A stretch of DNA of 64,000 nt, from IMG/VR virus record IMGVR_UViG_3300032160_000002; one strand, written 5' to 3'. Below are positions 5,123 through 52,914 of this stretch, piece by piece. The notes under the pieces were generated by a model. That model was not told where the DNA came from, did not search any database, and was given only the letters and a program-made list of their open reading frames with translations. The stretch is from an uncultured virus (IMG/VR IMGVR_UViG_3300032160_000002). Taxonomy: Duplodnaviria; Heunggongvirae; Uroviricota; Caudoviricetes. The position numbers and the translations under genes are program-made. Position 1 is the stretch's first letter, and each line of letters begins with the position of its first letter.

Positions 5123-5171
5123 GTGCTGCTTTCACCCTCGACTACTCCGGGCCGCAAACAGGGAGACTTGA

Positions 5172-5717: not shown

Positions 5718-5720
5718 AAA

Positions 5721-5855
5721 ATGAACGACCCAGTCATAGTGATGGGCACGGTCTGTGTTCTGGCAGGTTTAGTCGGAGGGTTGATAACTCTCGGAGCCTT
5801 TGTGTTTGGCATGTTCTACGAGAGGGAGAGGCAGCGGAAGGAGCGGGAGCAGTGA
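5721..5855 (+). CDS. 44-aa single-pass membrane peptide
   Basis: Read manually: MNDPVIVMGTVCVLAGLVGGLITLGAFVFGMFYERERQRKEREQ; fills the gap with coupled stop and start. Confidence 0.6.
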   Translation: MNDPVIVMGTVCVLAGLVGGLITLGAFVFGMFYERERQRKEREQ

Positions 5856-7460: not shown

Positions 7461-7630
7461 ACGCGGAGAGTGAAAGGTGAGAATAGAAAGAGATTTAGAT
7501 TCTGTAGTTCGCTAGAACGGGACACGTAGAAAAGAAAAGTTTTTGGCATCATCCTGTTGTCGAATCGTGAAGTCGAAGGAGGAAAAATCAGAACACAGCT
7601 TTAGCAACTCTGAGATGTCTCACAAGCAAC

Positions 7631-7720
7631 CGGGCCGCGCCCGTGCTGAAACACGAACGCGGTCCTAACCCGCAGCAAGCCTCAAAGGAGGAGGCTCACG
7701 ACATGGCTCGTATAAATTTA
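7631..7720 (-). ncRNA. candidate cis-antisense RNA / structured leader cassette, copy A
   Basis: Near-identical to 12521-12608: GC hairpin plus SD-occluding hairpin; antisense -10-like TAAATT at 7715-7720. Confidence 0.5.
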
Positions 7721-15248: not shown

Positions 15249-15410
15249 ATGCTCTTCCCTGTCCTACCCAAGAGCCCTTACACAGTGGAAGCCGCCGGCT
15301 TCTGGCTGCAGCAGCTCCGTCATGCTCATTGCTCGACTCTGGGACGCCGAGACTCGCAAGATCCCGTAACCAGCCACGAAGTTGCGGACGAGGACGACGA
15401 AGAAGCATGA
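15249..15410 (+). CDS. 53-aa hypothetical protein
   Basis: Read manually; ATGA overlap with the next gene. Confidence 0.4.
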   Translation: MLFPVLPKSPYTVEAAGFWLQQLRHAHCSTLGRRDSQDPVTSHEVADEDDEEA

Positions 15411-15658
15411 AAGCGATCACCATCACCTGTATCGGCGGAGTACATGGCGACTGCGAAAGCGCGGTGTGTCACTGTGCGTGTCATCGCCTGGAAGAGCCGG
15501 AGACAGGCCGAGTAAAGCGCGCCAGAAAGACTTTCAACGAGCCCCTCGGGATGGCATGCGCCGCGGCAGTCAACCGATTGAACGAGTACCAGGCCCAGCG
15601 CCAACATCAGGAAGCCCTCTGTCGGCTGGTGGGCATCCCGCTCACGATCTCCGCATGA
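15407..15658 (+). CDS. small Cys/His-cluster protein
   Basis: CIGGVHGDCESAVCHCACH; coupled to the resolvase ATG. Confidence 0.65.
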   Translation: MKAITITCIGGVHGDCESAVCHCACHRLEEPETGRVKRARKTFNEPLGMACAAAVNRLNEYQAQRQHQEALCRLVGIPLTISA

Positions 15659-16248
15659 AAGTCGCCCTCTACGCCCGCGTCTCCACCGACAAGTGCGAGA
15701 TCTGCGGCAAAAAACCTTCCGCCCATACTTCCTCCAGCACCCATGAGTTTCGCGGGCAGGATCCGGAAGTACAACTCCGCGAACTGCGGGACTGGTGCGC
15801 CGCCAACAAGCACACCGTAGTTCACGAATACGTCGATCGCGGCGTCTCTGGAGCGAAAACCTCCCGCCCTCACCTCGATGAACTGATGGCGGCGGCCGCC
15901 CAGGGCTTGCGAGAAATCGAAGCCGTTGTCGTATTGCGCCTCGATCGCTTTGGGCGATCGGTGCAGCACCTGCATGCGGCTGTGGGCAAGCTGCTCGACG
16001 CCAAGGTCGAGTTTGTCAGCGTGAAGGACAATTTCGATCTCACCACGCCGATGGGGAAACTCCTGTTCGGCATCCTGGCTGTCTTCGCTGAGTTCGAGCG
16101 CAACGTGATTGCGGAGCGCACCAAGGACGGGTTGAAGAAGGCGCGAGCCGTCGAGGGACATATCCCTGGCCGCAAGATCGATCTCGCGAAAGGGCCGAGC
16201 CGTACAACGCGCTGGCGGCAGAGGATCGGAGCCCGGAAACTGGCCTGA
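15655..16248 (+). CDS. small serine recombinase (resolvase/invertase family)
   Basis: YARVST catalytic motif, RLDRFGRS, AEFERNVIAERTKDGL; about 197 aa with no large-recombinase domains. Confidence 0.95.
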   Translation: MKVALYARVSTDKCEICGKKPSAHTSSSTHEFRGQDPEVQLRELRDWCAANKHTVVHEYVDRGVSGAKTSRPHLDELMAAAAQGLREIEAVVVLRLDRFGRSVQHLHAAVGKLLDAKVEFVSVKDNFDLTTPMGKLLFGILAVFAEFERNVIAERTKDGLKKARAVEGHIPGRKIDLAKGPSRTTRWRQRIGARKLA

Positions 16249-35862: not shown

Positions 35863-36867
35863 ATGGGACGCTCCGCACCCGCTTCCGCCGCGAACACCAC
35901 ATACAGCGGCCAGAGCCAGACCGCGTTCAACAACGCGCAAACCGATATCGGCCAGTACAACGCCAACGAAAAGAAGCTCGCTTCGGGGGTAAATGTTGGC
36001 GCGAATCCGTTCCAGTCATCGGCGTACCTTTCGAACGTCAACAAGCTGCAATCGGAAGCGCTTGACACTTCGGCAGCCTCCGGCAAAGCCAACTTACAGC
36101 GCTGGAACACGGCCACGGGCGGATTGAACTCTTCGGAAGTGCCGCTCGCCCAGCGCGATATCACCATGCAGACCGGGCGGTTAGCCGACAGCCTCAGTGC
36201 GCAACGCGCAGCCAGCGATTACAAATCGAATCTGGCCTGGCAGCAATATCTGGCGCAAGCCCCGCTCGCAGCCGCCGGCGCAGAGTCGCCGCTCTACAGC
36301 ACGGCAACCGGCGGACAAGGGAATGCGCTGAATAACCTGACGAACTTGAGTGGACAGCAGTACGGATTCTGGGGCGGCATGATCGACTCGGCTCTCATGG
36401 GAGCCGGAACGGGCGCCGGGCTGGCGGCATGTCCGGTAGAAGGGTCGCTCTGCCTCATGCCCGATGAGACAGAACAGCCAGTCGAATCACTGAAGATCGG
36501 GGAACTCATCGCCGGAATCGATGGAGAAGCGCAAACGATCGAGAACATACAGATTGCTTACGTGGATGCGCTGCGGGTCGTCACGGAGAACGGATGCGTG
36601 TTCCGTAACTCCACGACGCACGCCTACGTGCTGCCGCGCGGCGGATTTACGATTGCGTTCAAGGCTCTTGGCCGCATGATCGGTACGAGATTCGGGCCCA
36701 GCAGAGTTATCAGCGTGGAGTCGATTGGCAAACAGAAGGTCTTTAACATTATGACCGACGGCTCCCACACTTACTGCGCGGACGGCGCATGGGCATTGGG
36801 CGAGGAAATGTTTGATCCCGCCACGGGAATGAACGAGTGGTCAGCCGTGGGAAAGGCGGTGGCCTAA
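35863..36867 (+). CDS. DNA-ejection/internal virion protein with C-terminal Hint domain
   Basis: A/Q/N/S/G-rich N-half; AA-CPVEGSL...VESLKIGE...STTH...VFNIMTDGSHTYCADG. Confidence 0.75.
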   Translation: MGRSAPASAANTTYSGQSQTAFNNAQTDIGQYNANEKKLASGVNVGANPFQSSAYLSNVNKLQSEALDTSAASGKANLQRWNTATGGLNSSEVPLAQRDITMQTGRLADSLSAQRAASDYKSNLAWQQYLAQAPLAAAGAESPLYSTATGGQGNALNNLTNLSGQQYGFWGGMIDSALMGAGTGAGLAACPVEGSLCLMPDETEQPVESLKIGELIAGIDGEAQTIENIQIAYVDALRVVTENGCVFRNSTTHAYVLPRGGFTIAFKALGRMIGTRFGPSRVISVESIGKQKVFNIMTDGSHTYCADGAWALGEEMFDPATGMNEWSAVGKAVA

Positions 36868-38193
36868 ATGGGTGGATGGATGCCGCCGATTCCGCCAGAG
36901 ATGATGGCGGCTGCGCTGGCTCGCCGGGGAACCGCGAATCTTCCGCCTGCCGCCGTGCCGCCTCCGCCGGGCGTAACCCCGCCCCTCGCAACTCGCACGC
37001 CAGTCACGCTGCCTGCAGGAAATCCTGGACCGCTGCCGTCGAATGCACCTACACCACCAGCCGCCACGCCGATTCGTATGGGTCTGGGCGGACGCAATCT
37101 GGCCGAACCTAGTCCGCCCGGAGTTGGCGCTACCGGCGTGCCATACGTCCCCCCATCCTATACGCCTCCGATGTCGCAAGCACAACCGCCATCCTCATCG
37201 GATGATCCCGCGATCAGCCCGGAGATGCGCAAGGCGATGCAGTCCACGCAAAGCGCACAAGCTGCCCTCGATGCCGAAGGACAGAAGTATCAGGACCTCA
37301 GCAGTAAAGCGGCTGCGCTGAAACCACCGGACTACGAGAATTACAAACCGCCGCTCTGGAAAAAGATTGCCGCGCCGTTTGTGGGAGCCTTAGCAGGACG
37401 CAACGCCGGACCTGCCGTGGAGAGCATGCTTTACAGCCCGTACAACCGGGCCGTGCAAGGCTATGAACAACAGAAGTCGGCACTGCAGCAGCAACTCGAA
37501 GCGGAACGAGGAATTGGAATTCCACTAGCTGAGAGCCGCGCAAGGGTCGCGCAAGAGGGATACACGAACACACTGAATGCACGCAAGGAAGCGGAAACCG
37601 AAAAGCGCGATACCGCGACCGAGCAGTACAAGAGCGACCTGAATGAAATCCGCTCCAACATCGCGAGCGACAAACTGGACGAAGCTCAAAAGAAACTGGA
37701 CGAGACCGCCGAGAAGAACAAAAACAACTTCCAGATGCAGAACGAGCTACTGAAGGTGCGTCAGGAGTTGGCCGACGCCGCGAAGGAACGCGCGGACAAA
37801 GCCGCCGCCAACGGTGCGGGCGCGAATGGCATGACCGCCAGCGAGCAACGGGACTTCAACGCGAAGACACGACGCTACCAAGCAGAGATCGACTCCCTGA
37901 ACCGCGAACGGGCGCAGATGGTGGGCATCCCCGGAGACTTCGCCACGAAGCGCACAGCCGCGATCGACAAACGATTAGACGAACTCCACGGCAACATCGA
38001 CAAAGCAGAACAGGACATTCTCGATCGACGGCCGCAGAAAGGCGGCGCGGAAGCAACAAGCGGATCTGGCGCAAAAGGATTTCAGGTTCCCAAAGGCGCA
38101 CCCAATCCCACGAAGCCCGGCCAAGATTTGAAAATGAACAACAAGATCGTCGCGCACTCAGCCGATGGTAAGAGTTGGGGACCGCCGCAGTAG
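36868..38193 (+). CDS. DNA-ejection/internal virion protein
   Basis: Pro-rich N-terminus, long coiled coil, position. Confidence 0.65.
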   Translation: MGGWMPPIPPEMMAAALARRGTANLPPAAVPPPPGVTPPLATRTPVTLPAGNPGPLPSNAPTPPAATPIRMGLGGRNLAEPSPPGVGATGVPYVPPSYTPPMSQAQPPSSSDDPAISPEMRKAMQSTQSAQAALDAEGQKYQDLSSKAAALKPPDYENYKPPLWKKIAAPFVGALAGRNAGPAVESMLYSPYNRAVQGYEQQKSALQQQLEAERGIGIPLAESRARVAQEGYTNTLNARKEAETEKRDTATEQYKSDLNEIRSNIASDKLDEAQKKLDETAEKNKNNFQMQNELLKVRQELADAAKERADKAAANGAGANGMTASEQRDFNAKTRRYQAEIDSLNRERAQMVGIPGDFATKRTAAIDKRLDELHGNIDKAEQDILDRRPQKGGAEATSGSGAKGFQVPKGAPNPTKPGQDLKMNNKIVAHSADGKSWGPPQ

Positions 38194-38264
38194 CTAGGGA
38201 TTACTGGCGAAGAACCCGACGACCATCGCACACAGGAAGATGAAGAGCAGCACCGGCATTTTCG

Positions 38265-38378
38265 TTAGTCCCCGTGGTGGGCGCGCCAGAGTTCGGCCAG
38301 AAAGAAGCGCAAGGCCTTCCCCGCGAAGAAGCCGAGGATGCCCGCCGCGCAGCGCGCCAGAAACGTCAACTCCGTCAT
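38265..38378 (-). CDS. 37-aa hydrophobic peptide
   Basis: Read manually: MTELTFLARCAAGILGFFAGKALRFFLAELWRAHHGD. Confidence 0.4.
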   Translation of the reverse strand: MTELTFLARCAAGILGFFAGKALRFFLAELWRAHHGD

Positions 38379-39010: not shown

Positions 39011-42000
39011 ATGGCCGATCCCTCCAGTCCGCAGTTCGAGGTGGTGGATCCACAATTTGAAGTTGTGGACCCGCCGCCTCTGACGATGAACCAGAGACGA
39101 GGAAGCTACTCGGGGGCTCCAATTCCGCCTCGACCCACACTTCCTCCCTACGATTGGCAACGCGCGATCGTGGGCGGATTGACCGATATCGTCACGGGTG
39201 GGGGAATGCCATCGAATGAAAGCGCGCCGCCACTGGGCGAACCGATGGCACAGGGCGTGCGCGAACTGGAGACGCCGGGAAAGCGGGGCACAGGAGCCTT
39301 GCGAGTCGCGGCAACTGGCACCGAAGCCTTAACACCGCTGATGGGACCGGCGGCACTGGAAAACCCTCTCTCGATCGCCCGTGGGTTGGCCGAAGGAACG
39401 GCAGCAAGCAAAGGCGTTGAGTACGGCGCAAAGAAGTTAGGCGCAACCAAAGAACAGCAGGATCTTGCCGGAAGTCTGGCATTCTGGGCGCCTGGTGTAG
39501 CACGCTCTGTCATCGATCCGCGCGTTGCCGTGGAATCGGCACCAGAAGGCACACGAGTGGGAGCTACCGTCGCCGGCGGTCGGGCCGGCGCTGGGGTACA
39601 GGTTACCCCGGAGAATATCACCGTAGCCGGGAAAGTTGGCCCGTTCTCCGGCAGCAAGACATTTACTCGCGGAGCACAACCGGCAGGACCAGGAATTGAA
39701 GCTCCGACGATTGAAGGGCAGCCGCTAACCCCAGCACCGCCGACCGATCCCGCCGCTACCGCGATCGCAGAGTATGACACCGTGATGCAGAGAGCAGGCC
39801 AAGTCGTTCGCGGGGAGCCGATTGCACCGCCGCCGCCAGCCCCGCCGCCGATTTCTGCCAGCCCCAACGCTCCGCCATCAGTAAAAGCCGGAAGCATCTC
39901 GCCCGAAGATGTCGCCCAGGTTGCGCAGACCATTGCCAAGTTGCCTCCAGAGATTCGCCCGCAAGCCATGCAGGAAGTCCATCAGACGCTGACGAAAGTT
40001 CTGATGGAGCAAGCCGCGAGCGGAAAGCCGGTCGTACTCCCGAATGGCCAGATGGCGATCATCAAAGACCCGGCCTCCGCCGAAAAAGTAGCGCTGCAGT
40101 TGATGAATGATGCGGTCAAAGATCACGACAAAGCACAGGAAGTAGCAGCCAAGGAAGCGGAGAAAGCGGCGAAAGAGGAAGCGAAGCCGACACCAGCCGC
40201 GACGACGGGAGTACGGGCCAACAGTAGGCAGAAAGCCGCAGAACTGGCACAGCCTAAGTTTGAAGTTTCGGAAGCGCCCGCACCGAAGTTTGAAGTCGTA
40301 GAACCGGAACAGAAGGTAGAATCAGGAAATGGACGACGCGAATCCCAAGGTGCATTATCTGAGAGCCGAGCTCTACCCGTGGAGCGGCCCGGACGTGAAG
40401 AAGTTAGTGGAGAACCTCAACGAAGTCCTGAGCCGAGTGTCGCGGGAGGAATTGCGGTTGCGTCTGGCGAAGCACATGGGAACGCCGGAGAGCCACCTGT
40501 TCGTGTCGGATCGGGAACTGGTGCACCAAGTGCAGGAGAATCCTCAAATATTCTTCCCGGAAATAAATCTGCCGCAGTAGCCGAACAGCAGCCCTTTACC
40601 AAAGGCGATCCGGTAACTTTCTCCCGCAACCTGCAAGTTCGGAAAGGGGAAGGCAAATCGGAGATCATCCCGGTCGGCACCAAAGCCTTTATCGAACACG
40701 CCAATCCGGGGATGAACTTCGCAAGAGTGCGGTTGACCGATGGACGAGTACAATCGGTGCCGCTGAGGAATCTGGAGAAACATGAGGAAGCCCAAGGAGC
40801 GGGTGACCGCAGCAGAGCCGCCGAAATATCTGCTCAACGAGCAGGGGGAAATGGTGGGAGTGCAGCAGGAATTGGAAATGTCGCGAGCCGACCTGCAGAA
40901 GCTGTATCCGAACGTAATCCTGCCGCCGCCGCGCAAGAAGGGGCGAGGATTACCAGCGTTGCTAAAGAGACCGCGCCCGCAGTAACTCCCGCCAAGTCCG
41001 AGTGGCAAACCCTCTTCGAGAAAGCCTCTTCCCTCCAACCCGACAAAGTAGAGTCTCTGCGCAAGATGAGTGGAGAACAGTTGCAAAGTGTCATTCAAGG
41101 ACATTCCGAGACATCCAAGAAGCCCGTCACGCCACAGGTGGAACCGTCTTACTCCTATGGTTTGCCGTCCTTTGTGGGTGCAGGGCACACCGCGAAAGCC
41201 GAGCCGGTCGCGATTCCCAAAGGCCACTGGATGAATCGCATGGATGTGGACGAAGTTGCCAATCGGTATGGGAGTCATCCGGTTCACCCGATTCTCGGCA
41301 AGGCCACGAAGTTCCTGCAACAGTTCGTCGAGGAAGTGGACAGCCACAGCGACGGCTGGCCTTACTGGCAGGCACCCGCGCACGCCGCACAGCAACTCAT
41401 GGACCTAATCCAGAGTCCGAAGCTGGCGACCGAAGAGGCTCTCGCGAAGGCGATGTCCCCGATTAAATCCTTTATGACCAAGCGCGGCACTGCGGCGGGA
41501 ATGAAGATGCCGGAGATCGCGCTGCAGGCGAAAGAAAAAGCTGCGAAAGCCCCTGAAACCGGGAGTACAATAGATTCCGAGAAACCGCATGAGCCGCTCG
41601 CAAACCAGACCGCGGGAACCGCTCGAAACCCTGAAAACTTACCCAGCGTTTCAAGCGCTGCGCGCGAAAGCGGAACAGCACCAACTTCACTTTCGACCGA
41701 AGGAAAGCGAGCGGATGAAGAAGAACGGCTCGCTGGACGACATCCTGGACAGCCGGGCGGAGAGCGCCTGGAACAGCCTGCAGGACAACCTGGCCAACGG
41801 CTCGAACCAGAAGGAAGCCGAGGAAGTGGCGCTGCCGAACATCCTGGTACGAAGCGAACAGGAGGACGAGCAGGATCGCCTCGATCAGGAGGAGCAGGAG
41901 CAGACGGCCAGCCAGTAGAATCTCCTACCCCGCAAGAGCCAGAGGAAGCCCGCACTACCACCGCCGAACTGCGCAACCAGCGCAACTTCCGTATCTCGGA

Positions 42001-45000
42001 CGAAGAAGCCGCGAAGATCGGCACCGGCGGCGAAATCTCCAAAATCAAAGGCAACCTCGATGCGCTCGAAACTCTGAAGACGATTCAGAAAGAAGGGCGC
42101 GAGATCGCGACGCCGGAAGAACAGGCCACGCTTGCGAAGTACGTTGACTTCGGCGGCCTCGTCGGAATGCTGCAGAATCACTGGAAGCCTGAGTACACCA
42201 AGCACTACGAGCGCTTCACCAGCCTACTCACTCCTGCCGAGATTCAGGAAATCCGCGAAACCCTGCCGAACACCCACTACACCAGCATGCAGATGGTCGA
42301 CTGGATGTGGAAGGCGATGCAGCGCATGGGATTCCGTGGCGGGCGAATTATCGAGCCGGGTATGGGCATCGGCAACTTCATGGGGCGGATCCCGGAGAAA
42401 ATTGCCAACCGCTCCGAACTCTACGGCGTAGAGCGCAACCCGCTCACCGGCAGCATGGCGAAGCTGCTTTATCCGGACGCAAACATTCAGGTCAAGCCAT
42501 TTCAGCACTTCCTTGTCCCGAACAACTCACTCGACGCCGCGATCGGCAACGTTCCCTTTCAGGACGTGAACATCACTGACGATCCGGTTTACAAAGACCT
42601 CAAACTGAATCTGCATAACTACTTCATCGTGAAGACGCTCGACAAGCTGAAGCCGGGCGGGATCGCCGCGCTGATCACCTCGCGCTACACCATGGACTCC
42701 GCAAAAGGCACGGGCGTTCGGGCGCGCGAGGAGATGGCAAAGCGTGCGGACCTGGTCGGTGCAATCCGCTTGCCGGATGCGGCGTTCAAGCGCACTGCTG
42801 GCACTGAAGTCGTTGCTGATCTGCTGATCTTCCAGAAACGCGATCCGAAGGTCGAACTGGAAAAGATGCCGGAATGGGTTAAGTCCGTTCCCACGAAAGT
42901 GGGCAGCGCGGAATTCCCCATCAATCAATACTTCCTCGACAATCCGAGCCACGTCTTAGGCGAGCACTCCGATCAGGGACAGATGTACCGGGCTGGCAGC
43001 TACACCGTGAAAGCGCCGAAAGATTTCGACGCAGCCCTCGCCGGCGCCGCCGATCTGGTTCCGCGCAGCATCTTCGGAAAGGTGAAAACGAACCAGCCGA
43101 GCCAGGCACCGCCGGCAACGCTCGATCCGGGCGAGATGCAATTCGCGCCGGAAGACGTGAAGCCGGGCGCATTCTTCCGAGATGCGAAAGGCGCGATCAA
43201 GATCAAGCAGGCCGGCGTCGCCGCGGACCTCCCTGAAAACCTGCGCAACGCGGCCAGTAAGGAACAGATCGGTCACGCGATCGATCTCCGCGACCAACTC
43301 AATCGCGCCATCGAAACCCAGTTGCAGACCTCCGACGATGACTCGCTGAAGGAAGAGCAAAAGAAACTGGTCGACCTCTACAACAAGTACCACAAGAAAT
43401 ATGGCCCGCTGCATGGGCCGAAGCTCGCGAAGCTCTTCGGCGATGATCCGGAGTATCCGAAACTGCTAGCGCTAGAGAACGTCGATCCGGAGACCAAGGA
43501 GATTACGCGGGCCGCGATCTTCACCAAGCGCGTACTTGCGCCCTATGAGCCTTTGCGCGATCTGCCGGATGATCCGAAATCAGCCATGCTGAAAGTGATG
43601 GCGGAGCGCGGCTACCTCGACACCGGGCTCATGGCCGGGCTTCTCAAGAAACCCGAAGCCGATGTCATCGCGAATCTGGAAAAGCAGGACCTGATCTTCC
43701 AGGATCCGCAGTCCGGCATCTACCACACTGCCGACGATTATCTTTCCGGCAACGTGCGCGAGAAGTTGAAGCTGGCCGAGCACGCGCTCGAAAGCGATGC
43801 GAAGTACGCGCGCAACGTCGAAGCGCTGAAGAAATCTCAACCGAAGCCTCTCACCATCCACGACATCCAGCCGAATCTGGGCCAGACCTGGATTCCGATG
43901 AACGTTTACAAGGGCTTTATCGCGCACCTGGCGAAGACCGGAAACATCGACGTGGAGATCAACCGCGATGCCACGGGAAAGTGGCTGGTACGGGCCGAAG
44001 GCAACAAGTTTGCTCTGCAACACGAATGGGCGGGCGGCGACATTCCCGGACACAAGCTGGTGCAGTACGCCATGAACCAGCAGCAGCCGACCGTCTACCA
44101 GAAGGACGACAAAGGTTCCGTCTCGATCGATCAGCAGGCGACAACGGCCGCGCGGGAAAAGCTGGCTGCGATCAAGGAAGAATTCCGCACCGTCCTGCGA
44201 CGTGCCAACCAATCGACCGTCGACAAGCTCGAACAGATTTATAACGACACCTTTAACGCCTACAAATTGCGGGAGTTCTCCGGAGAGCATCTTGACTTCC
44301 CCGGCATGAGCGAAGAATGGCGCGACAAGATTCGCGGCTACCAGAAAGCGGCCGTGTGGCGCATTCTGCAGGAGGGGCGCGGCGGCATCTTCCACGCGCC
44401 AGGTCTCGGCAAGACCCTGACCATGGCCGCCTCCGGCATGGAAGCGCGCCGGCTGAAGCTCTCGCGCAAGAATATGTATGCGGTGCCGAATCACATGGTT
44501 CCGCAGTGGCGCGAAGATTTCAAACGCTTTTACCCGAATGCAAACGTGCTCGCTGTCACCGACGATGATTTCACCGCCACGAACCGCGCGAAGCTGATGA
44601 GCCGTATCGCAACCGGCGACTGGGACGCTGTGATTGTGCCGCACTCCCAGTTTGATCTTTTGCCGATGTCGCCGGAGTGGGAAAAGCAGACCATCGACAA
44701 ACGCCTTGCCGACTACCGTCAGGTCCTCGAAGAGTTAGACGAGGATAACGACAAGCGCACCATCAAGCAGATCGAGAAGGCCGTCGACAAGCTGGAAGCC
44801 CGCCTCAATGAGTTGAACGCAAAGAAGAAAGACGAAGCGATCCCGTTTGACCAACTCGGCGTCGACATGCTCTTCGTCGACGAAGCCCACGCCTACAAAG
44901 CGATGGCCGTACCGAGCAAGATGGGCAATGTGGGCGGACTCTCGAATCGCGCCAGCCAGCGGGCTTTCGCGTTGGAGATGAAAGCAGACTATCTCCGCAA

Positions 45001-48000
45001 CACCCACAAGGGCCGCGGCCTGGTCTTTGGCACCGGCACCCCGATCACGAACACCGTGGGCGAACTTTATGTGATGACGAAGTATCTGGCGCCGGAGATG
45101 CTCGAAGCCGCCGGTATTCGCAGCTTCGACGACTGGGCGGCCAACTTCGCGACGACAGTGACGCAATGGGAGTATTCCCCGGATGGTGTAACCTTCAAGC
45201 CGAAGACCACGCTCTCAGAATTCGTGAACGTCCCGGAACTCTCGACCATGTTCCGCCGCTACGCGGAGTATCTCTCGAAGGAAGCAGCCAAGCAACTCTC
45301 GAACCTGAAAGAGCCCAAGGCCAACCGCAAAGACCACATGGTCACAGTGACGCCGACGCAAGAGCCGTTGCTCGAAATGATCGCCGATCGCGGAGACCAC
45401 CTCACGAAACACCCGCCGCGCACCAAGGAAGAGCGCCAAGCGGACAACTGGCTGAAGCTATCGAGCGATGCCCGCAAAATCTCGCTCGATCCGCGCCTCT
45501 ACAATCCGGAACTCCATGACGACGCGGGATCGAAGGCGAATGAAGCCGTGCAGGTGATTAAGGACACCCTCGACAAAAGTAAAGAACAACGCGGGACCGT
45601 CGTCGTGTTCTCCGACTTCTTTCAGCACATGGGAAAGGACGGCAAGCCCGATTTCAATCTCTTTGAGGACATGAAGAAAAAGCTGGTGAAGCAGGGAGTT
45701 CCCGCCGGCGAGATCGCCATCATCCACGAAGCGGCAGATAAGGAAGAAAAAGAGGCGCTATTTGCGCGCGTGCGCAGCGGGAAAGTGCGTGTACTGTTTG
45801 GTTCGACCGACAAGATGGGCATCGGCACCAACGTGCAGGACCGGCTGAAAGCGGAATTGCACCTCGATCAACCCTGGCGCCCGGACCAGGTGGAACAGCG
45901 CGAAGGCCGCATCATCCGCTCCGGCAATATGTGGGACGATGTCGACATTCACCGATTCATCGCCGAACCGGAAGAGGGAATGATCAAGCGCTGGGATCCG
46001 CAGCAGCAGAAGGAAGTGGAGAAGCCCCGCCCGCGCGCCTATGATCTGCAGATGTATCAGCAACTTTCGCGCAAAGCGAACTTTCAGGAGCAATTCCTCA
46101 CCGGCAACTACACCGGGCGAAGCATGGAGGACGTGGGCGGCGATGTAAAACTGAATTCGCAAATGTTCGAGTTGGCGAAGGCGATGGCGACCGGCAACCC
46201 CGATGCCCTGCGCAAGATCAAGGTGGAACACGATCTGCGCACCTATTCGATGCTGGAGCGCAACTTCCAGGTCGAGCGCTCGAAGAACACCCGCACCCAG
46301 CAGAACCTGGAATACCGCATCCCTGTCATCGAACAGAAAATCAAACTGCTCGATCGCGATATCGCACTGTGGAAGAAAGCGGAAGAGAACGAAGAAAAAG
46401 GAATCTCGCTGCAGGTTGGCGACAAGACGCGCCAGGGCGACGAACTGAAGACCTGGGTGGACTCCGAGCCGAACATCGCCGACCTGGTGGGCAAGCCTTT
46501 GAAGATCGGCGGCATCGCGACGGAGTTAGACGCCTCGCTCGGCCGCGAACTCAACAAAAAAACTGGCGACTGGTTTGAGACGGTACGCTATCGTTATCGG
46601 CTCGCTGGCGAGGAGCACGAAGTTCCGTTCAACTTCGAGAAGGGCGTCCACCAGGTCCGGGCGCTGCTGAATTCCTTCGCGCAACGGGCGCGCCATCTCG
46701 AAGCGATGCGGACGACGGCGGGATACGACCTGGAGCGATCCAAAGAGGACCTCACCAATATCAAGAAAGAATTGGAGCGCACTTCTCCCTACCTCGCGAA
46801 AGTGGAGGGGATGGAGAAGGAAATCGCGGAGATCAACAAGCGCCTGGGCATGACAGGCCCGGCAGAAGTGGATGAGGGCGCCGCGCCGAGCGAAGACGAA
46901 TCGGAAAAGCCGACTACGACAGGCAAAGAGAAGAAAGAAGGCATCCTCACCGGCGAATCCGGCTCCCTTGAACCTGCGAAAGCTGCCCAAGTCGTTGCCA
47001 ATGGTGCTGGCCGTGTCGGAGATTTCCTCCGCCAGGAAGTCGAAGACAACCGCCGCGCCCACGAACTGCAGTGGGATCTGTACGACCTCGACAAACGCCA
47101 TGAAGGGCGTGTCCTACGCGCAAAGCAACTTCTTGAAGGTCTGCAAGCCGATGGAGTGACGCAGGAAGACCGGCGCGCGATCGATGATCACCTCGACGCG
47201 CTGCAAGCCGACTCCGATTCTGTTCCCGTGCCGCCGCTCACTGAGAAGCAGGACCGAATCCTGGATGACGTACTCATGCCCATGAAGGCCGAAGCAGAGG
47301 AAGCCTTCAAGAAAGTCACCGGCGCCGGCATGACCATTCCGAACTACAACCCGCGGCAGACCAAAGGCCGCGGGGGAATGCTCGACCGATTCCTCACTCC
47401 AGAAGGGGAGAAGCGCACCGGGCGCGGCAACACCCTCTCCACCGCGAATCCAGCGAGCAAACATCGGGTGATGATGGCGCTCGAAAACCAAGGCAAGCGC
47501 ATCGTGGTCTCGCTGAAGGGCGGCCAGGTCACCGCCTGGGACCATGGCACCCCAGAAAACCTAGGGCCAATCCTGCACACCGACGAAGGCCGGGAATTCC
47601 TCGACAAGGATGACAACATCTGGACGCTGAAGCAGGCGACCAAAGACGAAATCGAAGAACACACGGGAGTCGAGTATTATCACGACGCGGCCGCTTCCAC
47701 GATCGTGAACTGGCTGCAGGCGAAGAAAGCCGAAGCCGCGCACGATTTCCTGGAGAAGTTCAAAGGCGATCCCGAATTCAAGCAGATCGCAGTCCCAACC
47801 GACGCCGGCAATCCTCCAAAGGGCTGGCGAACCACCAACCTGCCGCAGATGAAAGGCTACTACTTCGAGCCGCACACGGCAGAAGTGCTCGACTGGTTCA
47901 ACGACCGGCTGAAATCCGGGAACCCCAACGCCTTCGATTCGATCAACTCCTACATGCGCATGAAGATCCTGCTGAACCCGATCAAGCACCCACTGAACGT

Positions 48001-49417
48001 GGGAGCGCAGTGGGCGGTGCAGAAGGGGGTCACCGGATTCCTGCCGAACCGCTGGATGAAGATCGGGCGTACCGGAGCGAGAGCCATCAACGCGATCGTG
48101 AATCAGAATCACGACATGCGCGAAGCCTTGGATGCAGGAGGAGCGCTGCAGTCTGCGCACGGCGTCACGCGCGACCTAGTGAAACTGTTCTACGACCAGA
48201 TGGCCGATGGCGCGGAAAAAGGCGAACCGTGGGCAACGAAACTAGCAAAGGCTGTGGGACTCGCGCCGGTGGAGTTGGTCAAGGTGCTGCACAATTTCTC
48301 GTCCAAGATTGCATGGCCAGTCTCGGACATGATGTACCTGCAGGCAGCTTACGAGTATCAGGAAGATCACGCTGGCGTGGATCTGCACGAGGCTCTGCGC
48401 GAAGTGGGAAAGATCATTCCGGAGTATCGCTTGCCGACGCGGATCATGGACTCGCGCACGCTCGCGAAAGTGATGGGTTCGCCGATTGGCACGGTGTTCG
48501 GAGCCTACCACTACGGCCTGTTGCGATCCTTTTCCGAGAGCGCGAAATCCGCACTGGGCGCGGGCGAACCAGCACCAGGAAGAACCAAAGCGCAAGAAGT
48601 GGGGAAAGGCTGGGATCGGTTGGCGATGATGGCTCTCGGAGCTTTCGCAATCTACGCCGTGGCCGATGAGCTCGCCCGGAAGCTGACCACCAACAAAGAC
48701 GCGACCGTACAGCGGCATGGAATCTTCGGACTGATTCAGGCTGTTAGTGATGTGGCCCGGAAAGAATCCTCTACGACGCAAGCCATCACGAAAGTGATGA
48801 CGCCGAACCCGCTGACGCTCGGTCTCACGCAACTTGCCTTCAACCGCGATCTGCGTACTGGACGACGCCTCTGGGACCCTGCCGCAGACTGGGGAACGGT
48901 CGGTACGCAACTTATGGCCTACCTAAAAGAGCAAGCACTGCCGCAGGGCCAACAGATCGAACGCGCCGCGCACTCCGATGAAGGCTGGAAGAAATTCGCC
49001 TGGAACCAGGCCGACGTAAACCTCCCTAAACACGGCGCCGAGAAACTAGCCGCAGAGATCGCGAGCTCGAAGATGGACACCTCCGCCTGGACGCCAGAAG
49101 AGCGAGAGCGCTACTACGCGCGCCAACAGGCTCTCGAAGGTCTACGCCGCGGAGATTCGCACGCTCTGGAGGAAGGACTGGAGAAAGGCCGCATCCGCTC
49201 GGACGAACTCACCAGCATTCTCCGCCGATCTTCCGGGAGTCCGCTTTATGATCGCGTGCATGGCTTCAGCTACGACGAAACCCTGCGCGTGTACGAGAAG
49301 GCTGTCGAAGACAAGGACGAAGCCGCACAGGAAGAGCTATTGCCCCTCTTGCTCGAAAAGCAGAGCAAGCTGATGAGCCAGGGGAGATACGAAGAGGCCG
49401 GAGTGCCAGTGCAATGA
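39011..49417 (+). CDS. giant DarB-like internal virion protein: N6-adenine DNA methyltransferase plus SNF2-type helicase
   Basis: EPGMGIGNF (motif I), IGNVPF (motif IV), YLSGNVREKL, HAPGLGKT, VDEAH, TGTPITN, MGIGTNVQ, EQREGRIIR. Confidence 0.9.
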   Translation: MADPSSPQFEVVDPQFEVVDPPPLTMNQRRGSYSGAPIPPRPTLPPYDWQRAIVGGLTDIVTGGGMPSNESAPPLGEPMAQGVRELETPGKRGTGALRVAATGTEALTPLMGPAALENPLSIARGLAEGTAASKGVEYGAKKLGATKEQQDLAGSLAFWAPGVARSVIDPRVAVESAPEGTRVGATVAGGRAGAGVQVTPENITVAGKVGPFSGSKTFTRGAQPAGPGIEAPTIEGQPLTPAPPTDPAATAIAEYDTVMQRAGQVVRGEPIAPPPPAPPPISASPNAPPSVKAGSISPEDVAQVAQTIAKLPPEIRPQAMQEVHQTLTKVLMEQAASGKPVVLPNGQMAIIKDPASAEKVALQLMNDAVKDHDKAQEVAAKEAEKAAKEEAKPTPAATTGVRANSRQKAAELAQPKFEVSEAPAPKFEVVEPEQKVESGNGRRESQGALSESRALPVERPGREEVSGEPQRSPEPSVAGGIAVASGEAHGNAGEPPVRVGSGTGAPSAGESSNILPGNKSAAVAEQQPFTKGDPVTFSRNLQVRKGEGKSEIIPVGTKAFIEHANPGMNFARVRLTDGRVQSVPLRNLEKHEEAQGAGDRSRAAEISAQRAGGNGGSAAGIGNVASRPAEAVSERNPAAAAQEGARITSVAKETAPAVTPAKSEWQTLFEKASSLQPDKVESLRKMSGEQLQSVIQGHSETSKKPVTPQVEPSYSYGLPSFVGAGHTAKAEPVAIPKGHWMNRMDVDEVANRYGSHPVHPILGKATKFLQQFVEEVDSHSDGWPYWQAPAHAAQQLMDLIQSPKLATEEALAKAMSPIKSFMTKRGTAAGMKMPEIALQAKEKAAKAPETGSTIDSEKPHEPLANQTAGTARNPENLPSVSSAARESGTAPTSLSTEGKRADEEERLAGRHPGQPGGERLEQPAGQPGQRLEPEGSRGSGAAEHPGTKRTGGRAGSPRSGGAGADGQPVESPTPQEPEEARTTTAELRNQRNFRISDEEAAKIGTGGEISKIKGNLDALETLKTIQKEGREIATPEEQATLAKYVDFGGLVGMLQNHWKPEYTKHYERFTSLLTPAEIQEIRETLPNTHYTSMQMVDWMWKAMQRMGFRGGRIIEPGMGIGNFMGRIPEKIANRSELYGVERNPLTGSMAKLLYPDANIQVKPFQHFLVPNNSLDAAIGNVPFQDVNITDDPVYKDLKLNLHNYFIVKTLDKLKPGGIAALITSRYTMDSAKGTGVRAREEMAKRADLVGAIRLPDAAFKRTAGTEVVADLLIFQKRDPKVELEKMPEWVKSVPTKVGSAEFPINQYFLDNPSHVLGEHSDQGQMYRAGSYTVKAPKDFDAALAGAADLVPRSIFGKVKTNQPSQAPPATLDPGEMQFAPEDVKPGAFFRDAKGAIKIKQAGVAADLPENLRNAASKEQIGHAIDLRDQLNRAIETQLQTSDDDSLKEEQKKLVDLYNKYHKKYGPLHGPKLAKLFGDDPEYPKLLALENVDPETKEITRAAIFTKRVLAPYEPLRDLPDDPKSAMLKVMAERGYLDTGLMAGLLKKPEADVIANLEKQDLIFQDPQSGIYHTADDYLSGNVREKLKLAEHALESDAKYARNVEALKKSQPKPLTIHDIQPNLGQTWIPMNVYKGFIAHLAKTGNIDVEINRDATGKWLVRAEGNKFALQHEWAGGDIPGHKLVQYAMNQQQPTVYQKDDKGSVSIDQQATTAAREKLAAIKEEFRTVLRRANQSTVDKLEQIYNDTFNAYKLREFSGEHLDFPGMSEEWRDKIRGYQKAAVWRILQEGRGGIFHAPGLGKTLTMAASGMEARRLKLSRKNMYAVPNHMVPQWREDFKRFYPNANVLAVTDDDFTATNRAKLMSRIATGDWDAVIVPHSQFDLLPMSPEWEKQTIDKRLADYRQVLEELDEDNDKRTIKQIEKAVDKLEARLNELNAKKKDEAIPFDQLGVDMLFVDEAHAYKAMAVPSKMGNVGGLSNRASQRAFALEMKADYLRNTHKGRGLVFGTGTPITNTVGELYVMTKYLAPEMLEAAGIRSFDDWAANFATTVTQWEYSPDGVTFKPKTTLSEFVNVPELSTMFRRYAEYLSKEAAKQLSNLKEPKANRKDHMVTVTPTQEPLLEMIADRGDHLTKHPPRTKEERQADNWLKLSSDARKISLDPRLYNPELHDDAGSKANEAVQVIKDTLDKSKEQRGTVVVFSDFFQHMGKDGKPDFNLFEDMKKKLVKQGVPAGEIAIIHEAADKEEKEALFARVRSGKVRVLFGSTDKMGIGTNVQDRLKAELHLDQPWRPDQVEQREGRIIRSGNMWDDVDIHRFIAEPEEGMIKRWDPQQQKEVEKPRPRAYDLQMYQQLSRKANFQEQFLTGNYTGRSMEDVGGDVKLNSQMFELAKAMATGNPDALRKIKVEHDLRTYSMLERNFQVERSKNTRTQQNLEYRIPVIEQKIKLLDRDIALWKKAEENEEKGISLQVGDKTRQGDELKTWVDSEPNIADLVGKPLKIGGIATELDASLGRELNKKTGDWFETVRYRYRLAGEEHEVPFNFEKGVHQVRALLNSFAQRARHLEAMRTTAGYDLERSKEDLTNIKKELERTSPYLAKVEGMEKEIAEINKRLGMTGPAEVDEGAAPSEDESEKPTTTGKEKKEGILTGESGSLEPAKAAQVVANGAGRVGDFLRQEVEDNRRAHELQWDLYDLDKRHEGRVLRAKQLLEGLQADGVTQEDRRAIDDHLDALQADSDSVPVPPLTEKQDRILDDVLMPMKAEAEEAFKKVTGAGMTIPNYNPRQTKGRGGMLDRFLTPEGEKRTGRGNTLSTANPASKHRVMMALENQGKRIVVSLKGGQVTAWDHGTPENLGPILHTDEGREFLDKDDNIWTLKQATKDEIEEHTGVEYYHDAAASTIVNWLQAKKAEAAHDFLEKFKGDPEFKQIAVPTDAGNPPKGWRTTNLPQMKGYYFEPHTAEVLDWFNDRLKSGNPNAFDSINSYMRMKILLNPIKHPLNVGAQWAVQKGVTGFLPNRWMKIGRTGARAINAIVNQNHDMREALDAGGALQSAHGVTRDLVKLFYDQMADGAEKGEPWATKLAKAVGLAPVELVKVLHNFSSKIAWPVSDMMYLQAAYEYQEDHAGVDLHEALREVGKIIPEYRLPTRIMDSRTLAKVMGSPIGTVFGAYHYGLLRSFSESAKSALGAGEPAPGRTKAQEVGKGWDRLAMMALGAFAIYAVADELARKLTTNKDATVQRHGIFGLIQAVSDVARKESSTTQAITKVMTPNPLTLGLTQLAFNRDLRTGRRLWDPAADWGTVGTQLMAYLKEQALPQGQQIERAAHSDEGWKKFAWNQADVNLPKHGAEKLAAEIASSKMDTSAWTPEERERYYARQQALEGLRRGDSHALEEGLEKGRIRSDELTSILRRSSGSPLYDRVHGFSYDETLRVYEKAVEDKDEAAQEELLPLLLEKQSKLMSQGRYEEAGVPVQ
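40329..40580 (+). CDS. overprinted +1-frame gene 1 inside the DarB-like gene
   Basis: Genome-like codon usage in this frame; GGTAGAAT 6 nt before ATG; main frame is low-complexity here. Confidence 0.6.
   Translation: MDDANPKVHYLRAELYPWSGPDVKKLVENLNEVLSRVSREELRLRLAKHMGTPESHLFVSDRELVHQVQENPQIFFPEINLPQ
40782..40985 (+). CDS. overprinted +1-frame gene 2 inside the DarB-like gene
   Basis: GGAG RBS; genome-like codons; main frame is low-complexity. Confidence 0.55.
   Translation: MRKPKERVTAAEPPKYLLNEQGEMVGVQQELEMSRADLQKLYPNVILPPPRKKGRGLPALLKRPRPQ
41589..41918 (+). CDS. overprinted +1-frame gene 3, TnpV-like helical protein
   Basis: HFRPKESERMKKNGSLDDILDSRAESA...NG....EAEEVAL; strongly G/C-ending codons; TACAAT upstream. 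Confidence 0.65.
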   Translation: MSRSQTRPREPLETLKTYPAFQALRAKAEQHQLHFRPKESERMKKNGSLDDILDSRAESAWNSLQDNLANGSNQKEAEEVALPNILVRSEQEDEQDRLDQEEQEQTASQ

Positions 49418-49595: not shown

Positions 49596-49712
49596 ACAGT
49601 CGTATAGATTAACCCTTTTCAAAGCTTTTGCAACACCCTTCGCTTCCCCTTAGACCGCGCCTGAGTCTTTGGAAGCCAGTTGTAACCGCCCCGAGCCTTG
49701 AGGGCGATCGCA

Positions 49713-50318
49713 ATGCCCCGAAAAAAGAAAGCAGCCAAAGCCCGTCGTGGCGGAAATCCCGCCAACCTCGAAAAGTCGCGCGCACAGACTAAAGCCCATC
49801 TGCAGCGAGGCCGGCAAAAAGAACGCGAACTGTCGATCCCGGAGATTGAGTATTGCGCCTGGCGGGCGCAGGGAGCAGCCCAATGGGATGCGGCGGAGTT
49901 TGCCGGTATCGCCAAAGGGAACCTTTACCGCCTCGAACAGCGCGAGAGCACACAGAAAACTATCGAGGAGTTCAAAGACAAATTCAAATCCGGCGCGATC
50001 GACCGCGTGGAGCAGATGCGGCAAGAGTTCACCGCATTCGTCTTCGGGCAATATCGCTTGCGGTTGCGGAAGATGAAGACTCACTACTTCCGCGGCGATG
50101 AGTCGATCCAGCGCATGATTGAAACCGGCTTCAAGGCTGCCGGGCTGATCCAGTCGCAGAAAACGGTTAACCAGCAGGTCAACAACGACAACCGGAATAC
50201 CACGAATCAGCTTTACGCCAAACGGCTCTATCTGCCGGATTGGCGAAGGGAAACCATTGAAGGGCTACAGGCAAAAGAATTACAGGCAGCGAAGGAGCCG
50301 GCCAAGCCCGCGCCCTGA
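49713..50318 (+). CDS. terminase small subunit (putative)
   Basis: HTH-like GAAQWDAAEFAGIAKGNLYRL; directly upstream of TerL. Confidence 0.7.
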   Translation: MPRKKKAAKARRGGNPANLEKSRAQTKAHLQRGRQKERELSIPEIEYCAWRAQGAAQWDAAEFAGIAKGNLYRLEQRESTQKTIEEFKDKFKSGAIDRVEQMRQEFTAFVFGQYRLRLRKMKTHYFRGDESIQRMIETGFKAAGLIQSQKTVNQQVNNDNRNTTNQLYAKRLYLPDWRRETIEGLQAKELQAAKEPAKPAP

Positions 50319-52914
50319 GCCTGCCCGCTGGCTGGTTCCGATCGGCCTGACGCTTTTCTTCCTGCTTTGCCTGATCCCCAACGGCCAAACACAAATGATG
50401 ACGGATGTTCAAGTCGAGCCGAAATTCCCGACGCAAGGCAGTTTTACGCCCGCCAGCCAAGCGCAGAAGGACTGGCTGAATTCCCGCGCAGAATTATTGC
50501 TCGGCGGCGGAAGTGTCGGCTCGCTAAAGACCTCGACCATGCTCGTCGATGGCTCCGTCGAATACGACAACTCGAACATGCACACCATCATGTTCCGCAA
50601 GACGCTGGCGGAGCATTCTGAGGCGATCCGGATCTCGCGCGACTGGTTTGCTCAAACCGGAGCGTCCTTCTCCGAAAACGTCCCCCTCGACAACGGGACC
50701 GGCACGCCTAGCTTCAACGGTAACTCCCATATGTGGCGCTGGCCTTGGGGATCAACCTTTCAGTTCGCCTACTGCGCGACCGACAACGACGTTTACGCGC
50801 ACCAGACCCAGAGCTACTGCGTGGAAGTCGGCACCCCCGTACTGATGGCCGACGGCACGTATAAAGCGATTGAGTCTATTGCTGTTGGTGACGTGGTGGC
50901 GACACTCGAAGGGCCTCGCCCGGTGACTCGGACACATGGGGTAAGGTGGAAGCCCTGCGTGCGCGCCGATATTCTCTCTGCTGCAGGGCAGCGCGTAATT
51001 TCCTCGCAGGTACATCCGGAGAACCATCGGGTTTTACTGGCTTCGGGGTGGGAGTCCTACGCTTCGCTAAAAGATGCTCGAAGCGCCTCCGCAGTGTCAT
51101 ATGACCACAACCTAGCACCTTCGCAGCCTCAAGAGTTGTTCGCCCTTGCAGTGCTTGCTTCACCTGTTCTTCGGTCACTGGAACGATCTGCGCCGAGACC
51201 CACTGAATGCTATTTACATCACAAAGCTTCCGCACGGTATTCCAACACATTCCTAGACGACGCGCTGCATCTTGGAGCGTCATGTGAGGATCGGCCGCTA
51301 ACGGTATCACGGCGGCAATTAAAGAGGGATCATGAATCTTCGCCTTTTGTAAGTGATGGAAGCCTATATGCTCGCTATGGGTGGGAAACAACCGTAGATT
51401 TTCGTCGCGATTGTCGCTGCGAATCTTGTTTATGTGATGAACAGCCTCCATTCCTGACAGGTACCTCCCAAGGCGTTTCTCGACAACAAGTCGGTGCTGT
51501 GGAACGAATCCATCCCAGTGCGCTGCTGGATGGTTCGACCGGCGTTCTAGGACGTAGCCAGCAGCATCCATGCGCGTATCCCCATCCTTATACGCATGAA
51601 CCCCGGCCTTGGTTGGGCGATGCGACCATTGCGCCATTGCGGCTCTCTCCTGTAGGTGACCGTGCAGTTTGCGACATTACGATTGATGGGCCGAATCACT
51701 ATATAACATCCCCTGCATTAGTCAACCAAAATTCCTGCATCCTCTGGGATGAATCAACCCGCACCGCCAGCGAATTCATGGTGCGCTACCTGCTGACCCG
51801 ACTGCGATCCACTGACCCATCGTTGTTCCTGCGATGCCGTTTGGGAACGAACCCCGGTGGCGAATTCGCGGAATGGCAGATGAAGATGTTTCTGGGCGGA
51901 GTCTGCCCGCACTGCGAACCTCCAAAGCTCTTTCCCGGAAAGATTTACCACGACACGAAGTGGCCGAGCGACGAGCGTAGCCTCGAAGGGATGACCACGC
52001 AGTTCATCTTCTCGAAGGTCACCGATCACAACCTGCTAGGCGAGAAGTACGTGCGCAATGTCCGTATGCAGCACGCAGCGACGGCAGAAGCTTTGCTAGC
52101 CGGATGCTGGAGGGCCTTCGAGGGCCAGTACTACACCATCTGGCATAGACCCACGATGGTCGTGCCGCGCCAGACCATCCGGGATAAATGGTATTGGGAA
52201 TCTTGGGTCGGGGCGGACTACGGCTTCGCTGGATCAAAGGCCGTGGCCTACCTGTTCGTTCGCGATCCTAAGACACGGCGTATCTACATCATCGACGAGC
52301 ACGTGGGCGAGCATGAAGCTGTCCGCGACTTCGCGCGTAGCGTCTACGAGAAGTTCGCCAAGAAGCGCGACGATCAGGAACAACCCAGGAAACTGCGGAT
52401 CATGTACCTCTCACCCGACGCCTGGAACGATCGCGGCGATCAACATACGCTGGCCGGCCAGATGAATGACGTGCTGCAGCCGCATGGCCTCGTTTTCGTC
52501 AAGGCGAAGAATGATCGCGCTGGCGGCGCCATGCTAACTTACGAATTGCTGCGTGACGGCACGGTACTGATCGCGGACAACTGCACTCTGCTTCCCCCGG
52601 CCATCGAAAGCGCCGTACACGATCCGAAACAGCCGGAAGCCATCCTCAACGTTCCCAATAATCCGCACTCGGACGCGCGCGACGCATTCCGCTACGGGAC
52701 TTACTCCCATCACCGCGAGGCCCTAGAACCGCTCGATGTGCGCGTCGCCGAACGAGTGCAGGAAGAGTGGAAGCACGATCCGACCTCAGCCATGTTCCAC
52801 GCGCAGCAGATTCGCGACGAAGAAAAGGCCAAAGAAGGCCCGAAAGTCTCCTCTTACGGCGGTGGCAACGCGCGGCGCCGCATTCAGCAGTGGGAGCGCT
52901 CGCGCAAGGGATAA
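50257..52914 (+). CDS. terL: terminase large subunit containing an intein (start either TTG 50257 or ATG 50395)
   Basis: LLGGGSVGSLKT Walker A, ILWDE Walker B, GTNPGG, GADYGF nuclease motif, DARDAFRYG. Confidence 0.92.
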   Translation: MKGYRQKNYRQRRSRPSPRPEPARWLVPIGLTLFFLLCLIPNGQTQMMTDVQVEPKFPTQGSFTPASQAQKDWLNSRAELLLGGGSVGSLKTSTMLVDGSVEYDNSNMHTIMFRKTLAEHSEAIRISRDWFAQTGASFSENVPLDNGTGTPSFNGNSHMWRWPWGSTFQFAYCATDNDVYAHQTQSYCVEVGTPVLMADGTYKAIESIAVGDVVATLEGPRPVTRTHGVRWKPCVRADILSAAGQRVISSQVHPENHRVLLASGWESYASLKDARSASAVSYDHNLAPSQPQELFALAVLASPVLRSLERSAPRPTECYLHHKASARYSNTFLDDALHLGASCEDRPLTVSRRQLKRDHESSPFVSDGSLYARYGWETTVDFRRDCRCESCLCDEQPPFLTGTSQGVSRQQVGAVERIHPSALLDGSTGVLGRSQQHPCAYPHPYTHEPRPWLGDATIAPLRLSPVGDRAVCDITIDGPNHYITSPALVNQNSCILWDESTRTASEFMVRYLLTRLRSTDPSLFLRCRLGTNPGGEFAEWQMKMFLGGVCPHCEPPKLFPGKIYHDTKWPSDERSLEGMTTQFIFSKVTDHNLLGEKYVRNVRMQHAATAEALLAGCWRAFEGQYYTIWHRPTMVVPRQTIRDKWYWESWVGADYGFAGSKAVAYLFVRDPKTRRIYIIDEHVGEHEAVRDFARSVYEKFAKKRDDQEQPRKLRIMYLSPDAWNDRGDQHTLAGQMNDVLQPHGLVFVKAKNDRAGGAMLTYELLRDGTVLIADNCTLLPPAIESAVHDPKQPEAILNVPNNPHSDARDAFRYGTYSHHREALEPLDVRVAERVQEEWKHDPTSAMFHAQQIRDEEKAKEGPKVSSYGGGNARRRIQQWERSRKG
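50876..51637 (-). CDS. HNH homing endonuclease with HTH-like domains, encoded antisense within the intein
   Basis: YKDG...GYVLERRSNHPAA..GFVPQHRLVVEKRLGRYL...EAVHHINKIRSDNRDENLRLF..HSEH..FH; AGGAG RBS. Confidence 0.9.
   Translation of the reverse strand: MAQWSHRPTKAGVHAYKDGDTRMDAAGYVLERRSNHPAAHWDGFVPQHRLVVEKRLGRYLSGMEAVHHINKIRSDNRDENLRLFPTHSEHIGFHHLQKAKIHDPSLIAAVIPLAADPHMTLQDAARRLGMCWNTVRKLCDVNSIQWVSAQIVPVTEEQVKQALQGRTTLEAAKVLGCGHMTLRRRFEHLLAKRRTPTPKPVKPDGSPDVPARKLRAALQQREYRRARRASTLPHVSESPGEALRVSPPRHQQQ
51698..51725 (-). promoter_or_regulatory. candidate promoter for the antisense HNH gene
   Basis: TTGACT-N16-TATAGT on the minus strand, inside the intein C-terminal codons. Confidence 0.6.

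Follow-up and report, generated by a model that had tools for sequence, protein, structure and literature searches.

The giant gene and its nested reading frames

The stretch of DNA analysed here, 64,000 nucleotides in full and called the window below, is from a phage or prophage. It encodes a terminase large subunit at 50257-52914, with weak capsid and adaptor matches upstream, and a resolvase (serine recombinase) at 15382-16248. The host probably belongs to the Acidobacteriota, since the closest relatives of nested gene C, described below, are found in Acidobacteriota genomes. The terminase has a long insertion with a weak Hint-domain match, probably an intein. Judged by eye, the protein at 35863-36867 ends in what we take to be a Hint-like stretch, for which there is no database match.

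The gene considered in the present work encodes a DarB-like polyvalent protein. phrog_10089 (DarB-like) matches it with 1398 bits over residues 880-2639, and its core consists of an N6-adenine methyltransferase and an SNF2-type helicase fused in one ORF, with matches to ResIII, SNF2 and Helicase_C. The nearest solved relatives of the methyltransferase are TaqI-type methylases. A GTGG motif and helices at residues ~997-1070 fit the LPD36 description, which makes this a candidate four-helix cap. From its position after the virion genes, and by analogy with the JC1 proteomics (PMC9144972), the protein may be packaged in the virion, injected, and active in antirestriction. The features of the gene are as follows.

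39011..49417, + strand: giant DarB-like polyvalent gene, 3468 aa (phrog_10089, ResIII, SNF2 and Helicase_C matches)
40317..40322, + strand: TAGAAT, −10-like box, 6 nt before the ATG of A, a spacing that appears to be of the leaderless type
40329..40580, + strand: nested ORF A, 83 aa, +1 frame, probable gene, orphan (codon score, shuffles)
40583..40780, + strand: small strand-rich main-frame segment between A and B (aa 525-590)
40749..40754, + strand: TACAAT, −10-like box of B (from sequence)
40774..40777, + strand: GGAG, ribosome-binding-site-like motif of B (from sequence)
40782..40985, + strand: nested ORF B, 67 aa, basic (pI 10.3), +1 frame, probable gene
41231..41500, + strand: helical domain, main frame, phrog_22197 (aa 741-830; 80% identical in L002)
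41566..41571, + strand: TACAAT, −10-like box of C, without a clear ribosome-binding site
41589..41918, + strand: nested gene C, 109 aa, acidic (pI 4.9), predicted all-helical, TnpV/DUF1896-like, +1 frame
41591..41965, strand not given by the contigs: stretch covered by RNA contigs in 4/4 runs
41963..43000, + strand: candidate four-helix cap with GxGG motif and N6-adenine methyltransferase domain, main frame
44327..45925, + strand: SNF2-type helicase/translocase, main frame (aa 1773-2305, domain match)

The initial annotation had placed A, B and C in the +1 frame of the giant ORF, with genome-typical G/C-ending codons, over a main frame of G/R/S/A/P/E low complexity, and all of this is borne out. 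A codon model trained on the other genes of the window switches from the main frame to +1 over all three ORFs. A model trained on the giant's own core puts the +1 frame ahead of the main frame by 57, 44 and 88 bits for A, B and C; for the remaining 17 of the 20 shifted-frame ORFs of at least 40 aa in the giant, the score difference is negative. The third-position G+C is 0.75, 0.75 and 0.79 in the nested frames, compared to 0.30, 0.40 and 0.38 in the main frame and 0.74 in the gene core, and the six residues named make up 72-76% of the main frame over the three ORFs. Among 2000 base shuffles that keep the main frame open, the observed score was reached in 3 cases for A, 29 for B, which makes B the weakest of the three on this test, and 0 for C, while five control spacers and domains favoured the main frame. 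An open +1 frame alone is unsurprising, since synonymous recoding of the main protein leaves it open in 42% (A), 63% (B) and 42% (C) of cases. A fourth nested candidate at 46872-47159 was rejected (z −0.3).

The view that each ORF has an initiation signal holds for A (TAGAAT-N6-ATG) and for B (TACAAT plus GGAG), and for C as far as the TACAAT box is concerned, a clear ribosome-binding site being absent there. The + strand of the 10.4-kb giant contains five TAnAAT hexamers, three of which lie 12, 33 and 23 nt before the starts of A, B and C, a pattern that was picked post hoc, after the initial annotation had pointed to such boxes. The last T of the box of C is also the first base of a +1-frame stop codon, TAG (41571-41573), which shuts the frame 15 nt ahead of the ATG, and the same hexamer occurs upstream of the C-like ORF in L001, L002, L006, L027 and phage DC1. 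A strict −35/−10 scan gave no full sigma-70 promoter, and no terminator was found on the + strand. The other two TAnAAT boxes, at 41916-41921 (overlapping the C stop codon) and 45500-45505 (in the helicase region), have no nested ORF tied to them.

The single-sequence model of the main frame has a mean pLDDT of 44, too weak for domain calls; the stretches over A and C are modelled as coil, and the part separating them as strands or helices. In the segment between A and B, codon usage returns to the main frame and strands appear in the low-confidence model; family matches were looked for here and none was found. The proposed alternation of nested ORFs with folded main-frame domains gains some slight weight from this pattern and from the phrog_22197 match.

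Conservation, selection and fold of gene C

C has 34 close relatives, and 96 are found by profile. Four of the related loci (L001, L002, L006 and L022) have it nested ahead of this methyltransferase too, and the main frame there is free of stops. As had been noted from the window, C ends just before the methyltransferase part: its stop is at 41918 and the cap/methyltransferase segment starts at 41963.

For C, selection on the two frames can be compared directly. Between the window and L001, L002 and L006, dN/dS is 0.32, 0.28 and 0.24 in the C frame and 2.25, 3.34 and 2.60 in the main frame, and the methyltransferase control gives 0.12-0.17 in the same comparison. Against L022, the values are 0.55 for the C frame and 1.25 for the main frame, and two further nested pairs give 0.54-0.57. 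Under random recoding of C, the main frame stays open in only 0.8% of trials, but it is stop-free in all nested relatives, which means that the main-frame read-through is selected as well.

The model of C (pLDDT 79) is all-helical, and 2APL (DUF1896) is the top match in two fold searches. Foldseek ranks it 1, with probability 1.0, E 0.28 and TM 0.51. VIA gives Z 7.9 and an rmsd of 2.4 over 67 residues; this Z is within the range common for helical models, yet it is 3 units above the next match (4.7) and agrees with weak sequence matches. C is thus predicted to have a 2APL-type helical fold. Matches to designed proteins were dismissed as composition matches.

The initial annotation had likened the third ORF to TnpV. 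Neither C nor 33 close relatives match Pfam TnpV (PF14198), and C has no gathering-score match to DUF1896 (PF08989). The likeness stands by way of the profile chain and the fold: in a scan of 93 of the 96 profile relatives, 10 match TnpV, one of them above the gathering score, and 4 match DUF1896, none above it (the best at 19.3 bits vs 25). On sequence profiles and the modelled fold, then, C is related to TnpV/DUF1896 and is not a Pfam member. Compared to TnpV of Tn4451/Tn4453-type elements, C has a shorter last loop. Its identity to the DUF1896 protein PG0816 (2APL) is 21-23%, and PG0816 has a further C-terminal part. A tblastn search with C as a single sequence gave no match in phage or plasmid records.

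RNA over gene C

RNA-library contigs cover C in 4/4 runs (41593-41965, 41591-41959, 41611-41962 and 41611-41944). They are wholly aligned without mismatches, begin some 20-40 nt past the TACAAT box, and span C plus about 45 nt. The runs come from one study with three samples, were retrieved with 40000-42200, and yield contigs without strand or level; since the source could also be DNA or an identical solo copy, we take the RNA as a hint of a separate C transcript and not as proof. Apart from C, contig pieces are seen only at 38120-38314 and, partially, at 41993-42026. None lies over A, B or most of the giant in the four runs, an absence that is uninformative. The pieces at 38120-38314 are short, come from two runs, and cover the end of the gene at 36868-38193 and the following intergenic stretch. 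No significant hairpin is found at the RNA 3′ end (z −0.9). Separate expression of the nested genes, as originally suggested, thus appears plausible from sequence for all three, with RNA adding to the case for C only.

Nested genes in other giants

The survey drew on 363 confirmed viral methyltransferase loci, of which the best 80 were taken. A profile built from the relatives of C alone finds a match in 37 of these 80 loci; every one of these matches is nested in +1, and in 36 cases the methyltransferase follows directly. The iterated profile raises the number to 67/80, and with the codon test added it becomes 71/80 loci, or 57/65 clusters; by profile or codon test, 9/80 have no nested gene. 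In the 80 loci, neither the +2 frame nor the frame of the giant itself yielded one. The codon test gave one nested ORF downstream of the methyltransferase, the part on which the test was trained. C keeps its place ahead of the methyltransferase across phyla, also where methyltransferase identity is down to about 40%, and 51/63 nested TnpV-like proteins have a pI below 6.

The same layout is present in cultured phages: the records of VvAW1, DC1, LASTA, Gerry and 8P all (5/5) contain an unannotated +1 ORF, which the first C profile matches in all but 8P. In 8P, a Pseudomonas stutzeri phage, this ORF is at 7693-7965 of L037. It is also seen for 5/7 methyltransferase matches in Acidobacteriota-class genomes. 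Canonical TnpV itself is nested in +1 in Firmicutes-type giants (L134, L060), where it lies 500-1000 codons upstream of the methyltransferase and not next to it.

Further nested ORFs are common. Extra non-TnpV ones occur in 21/80 loci, several of them in small families, and 2/80 loci have three nested ORFs. Two TnpV-like genes are nested in one giant in L113, L115 and L119, and four loci have a further TnpV-like copy outside the giant. Second unannotated nested ORFs of 54-59 aa are found in DC1 (L034, 5944-6108) and Gerry (L036, 6193-6372); they are Leu/Pro/Arg-rich, have a strong AGGAGG, and form small families. A 54-codon candidate over the nucleotide-cyclase-like domain of L032 was judged doubtful.

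The annotation of phage PBC5 (L039, about 26500) has two DarB-like genes, apparently parts of a single giant that was divided by a one-base shift. This shift probably joins the first half to the nested C-like frame, which would also explain a C-like domain at the end of phrog_938. The viral fold match Q8W6J4, presumably the PBC5 protein, had suggested an in-frame copy of C; this was rejected, as the PBC5 record shows the one-base shift.

Solo copies of gene C

C also occurs where there is no giant: chromosomal patches carry such solo copies next to resolvase-, integrase- or terminase-small-subunit-like genes. A search of four (incomplete) solo-copy genomes gave no cognate methyltransferase (0/4). 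The solo copies L025a, L025b and L026 share an end junction and have dN/dS of 0.09-0.13; in L008, L009 and L027, C is kept and the relic breaks off just past it. On this sequence evidence, C survives without the methylase in Acidobacteriota chromosomes, under purifying selection. It is important to note that solo copies are rare, with 0/400 in further genomes, and that the −1 frame is still open in 8/10 of them, so they may be recent debris.

The L025 patch (1621-8811) has an integrase-like ORF, two tandem C copies, a terminase-small-subunit-like ORF and an ORF that we take to be restriction-endonuclease-like, and is possibly a satellite element. The terminase-small-subunit-like ORF shares a C-terminal motif with window 49698-50318, and each tandem C copy ends at a CCCTACCTAGGTAGGG palindrome, which is also present in L026.

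Which frame is newer

We now turn our attention to the direction of the overlap. In the genes of the window, the −1 frame has 1.8 stops per 100 codons and the +1 frame 3.5, and this twofold difference can account for the fixed +1 phase of the nested genes. Pairwise comparison of 53 nested proteins gives 368 similar pairs out of 1378, compared to 73 for their main-frame overlaps, which are 20% Gly with almost no aromatic residues. In two of the 80 giants, moreover, the main frame is open across nested +1 HNH endonuclease genes (phrog_3377; L074 4734-5348, E 1e-53, and L085 5337-5891, E 1e-56). Since the nested proteins are more alike than the overlaps, and since HNH is an old family that cannot arise from a spacer, the giant's spacer is the newer frame.

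Over C, the nested frame is conserved and family-wide while the main frame behaves as unconstrained spacer, and read-through as the direction is supported by these sequence comparisons. That the spacer over C is the −1 reading of a complete small gene with its own promoter and start is close to certain. The growth of the polyprotein by read-through, as the initial annotation proposed, agrees with the dN/dS of C, the nested-frame conservation and the HNH cases, and we consider it likely that the giant grew by reading through small genes. The description of the small genes as overprinted is reversed by the conservation of the nested frame: the overprinted frame is the giant's spacer.

Alternative explanations of the layout

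The status of A and B differs from that of C. Neither has a Pfam or PHROG family, a viral-contig relative, a match in the 401 genomes searched with each (0/401), or a relative among 93 nested ORFs. The sole match of A is its own sequence, and its Atlas model is poor (pLDDT 0.59; Atlas matches of A and C are under 0.9). B has one relative, P0036, 84% identical, whose tail runs on into the +1 reading of the same downstream DNA. Together with the shuffle result for B and the ease with which +1 stays open, this scarcity of relatives could mean that only C is real, A and B being dead or accidental, i.e. remnants of engulfed genes or recently imported spacer DNA with a fossil codon pattern. On the other hand, both have kept an ATG and a stop, with one of the rare −10 boxes suitably spaced from the start, the relative of B differs mostly by conservative changes, and there are the extra non-TnpV nested ORFs of other giants. 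We therefore regard the accidental origin as rather improbable; from codon pattern and start signals, A and B are each probably a gene. A more radical alternative attributes the layout to misassembly, or to programmed frameshifting by which the frames are fused; the joining of the N-terminal half of the giant to a C-like frame in the PBC5 record could be cited in its favour. This alternative is largely refuted and highly improbable: the main frame runs through all 3468 codons of the giant without a stop, and it is likewise open in the identical contig L004 and in 80/81 related loci; the +1 stop lies 15 nt before the ATG of C; and PBC5 is explained by its single one-base shift, with no in-frame match in the 80 loci.

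Proposed function and its rivals

The giant would be a chain of folded modules joined by spacers, three of which would be −1 readings of small genes. A gene with G/C-ending codons has few −1 stops, and its −1 product would be a hydrophilic G/A/R/E/D/P/S chain usable as a spacer, so that a module could fuse without losing the gene in front of it. C would have accompanied the methyltransferase-SNF2 module since ancient times, as its dedicated partner. A promoter of its own inside the giant gene would allow C to be made apart from the giant, for instance in a lysogen. Being acidic and helical, it might bind and hold off the DNA-methylating translocase, and in this way shield the host chromosome from the cell's own giant and from giants that related phages inject. 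For A and B, a more recent arrival is conceivable, as passengers or as partners of the small domains near the N-terminus. That C is a separately expressed inhibitor of the methylase-translocase is our tentative reading, held at somewhat less than even confidence; the whole model, with modules joined by read-through spacers and C restraining the methylase-translocase, seems to us evenly poised. Complex prediction for C with main-frame aa 985-1770, the part without the helicase, gave a score of 0.00 in both runs, a result that carries no weight for or against binding.

Several observations sit poorly with inhibition. P1 DarB is described as protective and not toxic, the Firmicutes-type TnpV genes are nested far from the methyltransferase, and there are the nine loci without a nested gene and the rare, perhaps decaying, solo copies. 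C could instead help the giant as a chaperone or adaptor, by folding it or by bringing it into the capsid or onto DNA that is being transferred; elements with a solo copy would then borrow the giant of a helper. The tight linkage of C to the module in phages and conjugative-type loci would fit such a role, as would the neighbours of the solo copies, which recall TnpV in mobilisable transposons. A gene used only together with the giant would, however, not need its own promoter, the cryptic remnants keep C after loss of the methyltransferase, and the RNA contigs, if weakly, mark C as its own unit; we consider the helper role unlikely. Slightly less likely still is that C acts elsewhere, as a recombination directionality factor or an anti-defence protein, its link to the methyltransferase being historical. 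TnpV has been postulated to be Xis-like (PMC3158075), and the solo copies in L005 and L010 adjoin serine recombinases, one of which the window also has. Against this, the acidic, all-helical model of C matches DUF1896, with no Xis-type match among the top matches listed, and the position before the methyltransferase has been kept across phyla. The inhibitor reading can be widened into a general rule, by which each enzyme module joins with its small control gene, whose −1 frame then serves as spacer, the giant hides separately promoted antidote genes, and TnpV/DUF1896 proteins act as inhibitors of the DarB-type methylase-translocases. Lysogens would make these proteins, and hosts and satellites would keep them so as to be immune to injected enzyme. 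This we put forward as a possibility, and a doubtful one.

Relation to known systems and significance

Both embedded genes and the DarB-like type of giant are already known. comS in srfAB is a whole gene inside the frame of another on the same strand, and C is of this kind, lying wholly inside an open ORF with purifying selection on the inner frame. The Rz1-in-Rz spanin genes (PMC9144972) share this same-strand arrangement with the window, which differs in having three genes in one host gene, a promoter-like box for each, and a host frame that is passive and newer. As embedded genes, the JC1 paper (PMC9144972) names Rz1 and, in the accessible text, none within the DarB-like gene of that phage. 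Iyer et al. 2017 (PMC5512222) described the methylase-helicase dyad found in polyvalent proteins, including phage P1 DarB; the present giant resembles it in its N6-adenine methyltransferase, SNF2-type helicase and location at the end of the virion gene block, and in having a candidate four-helix cap. The main text of that paper describes no nested spacer genes and contains no occurrence of TnpV, DUF1896 or 'overlap'. For TnpV, a role in excision is only postulated (PMC3158075). Our searches of the openly available literature brought up no description of genes nested in DarB-like genes. What is new here is the RNA support for a nested gene, the solo retention in host chromosomes, and the nested HNH cases.

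Annotation discards genes nested in genes, yet most of the DarB-like giants examined carry at least one. The nested HNH cases suggest that a mobile endonuclease gene can insert without breaking its host gene, and read-through would offer very large multidomain proteins a route to gain spacers. The findings also link two families of obscure role, TnpV and DUF1896, with a specific enzyme module, and they open the regulation of DarB-type antirestriction to tests in cultured phages by single silent changes.
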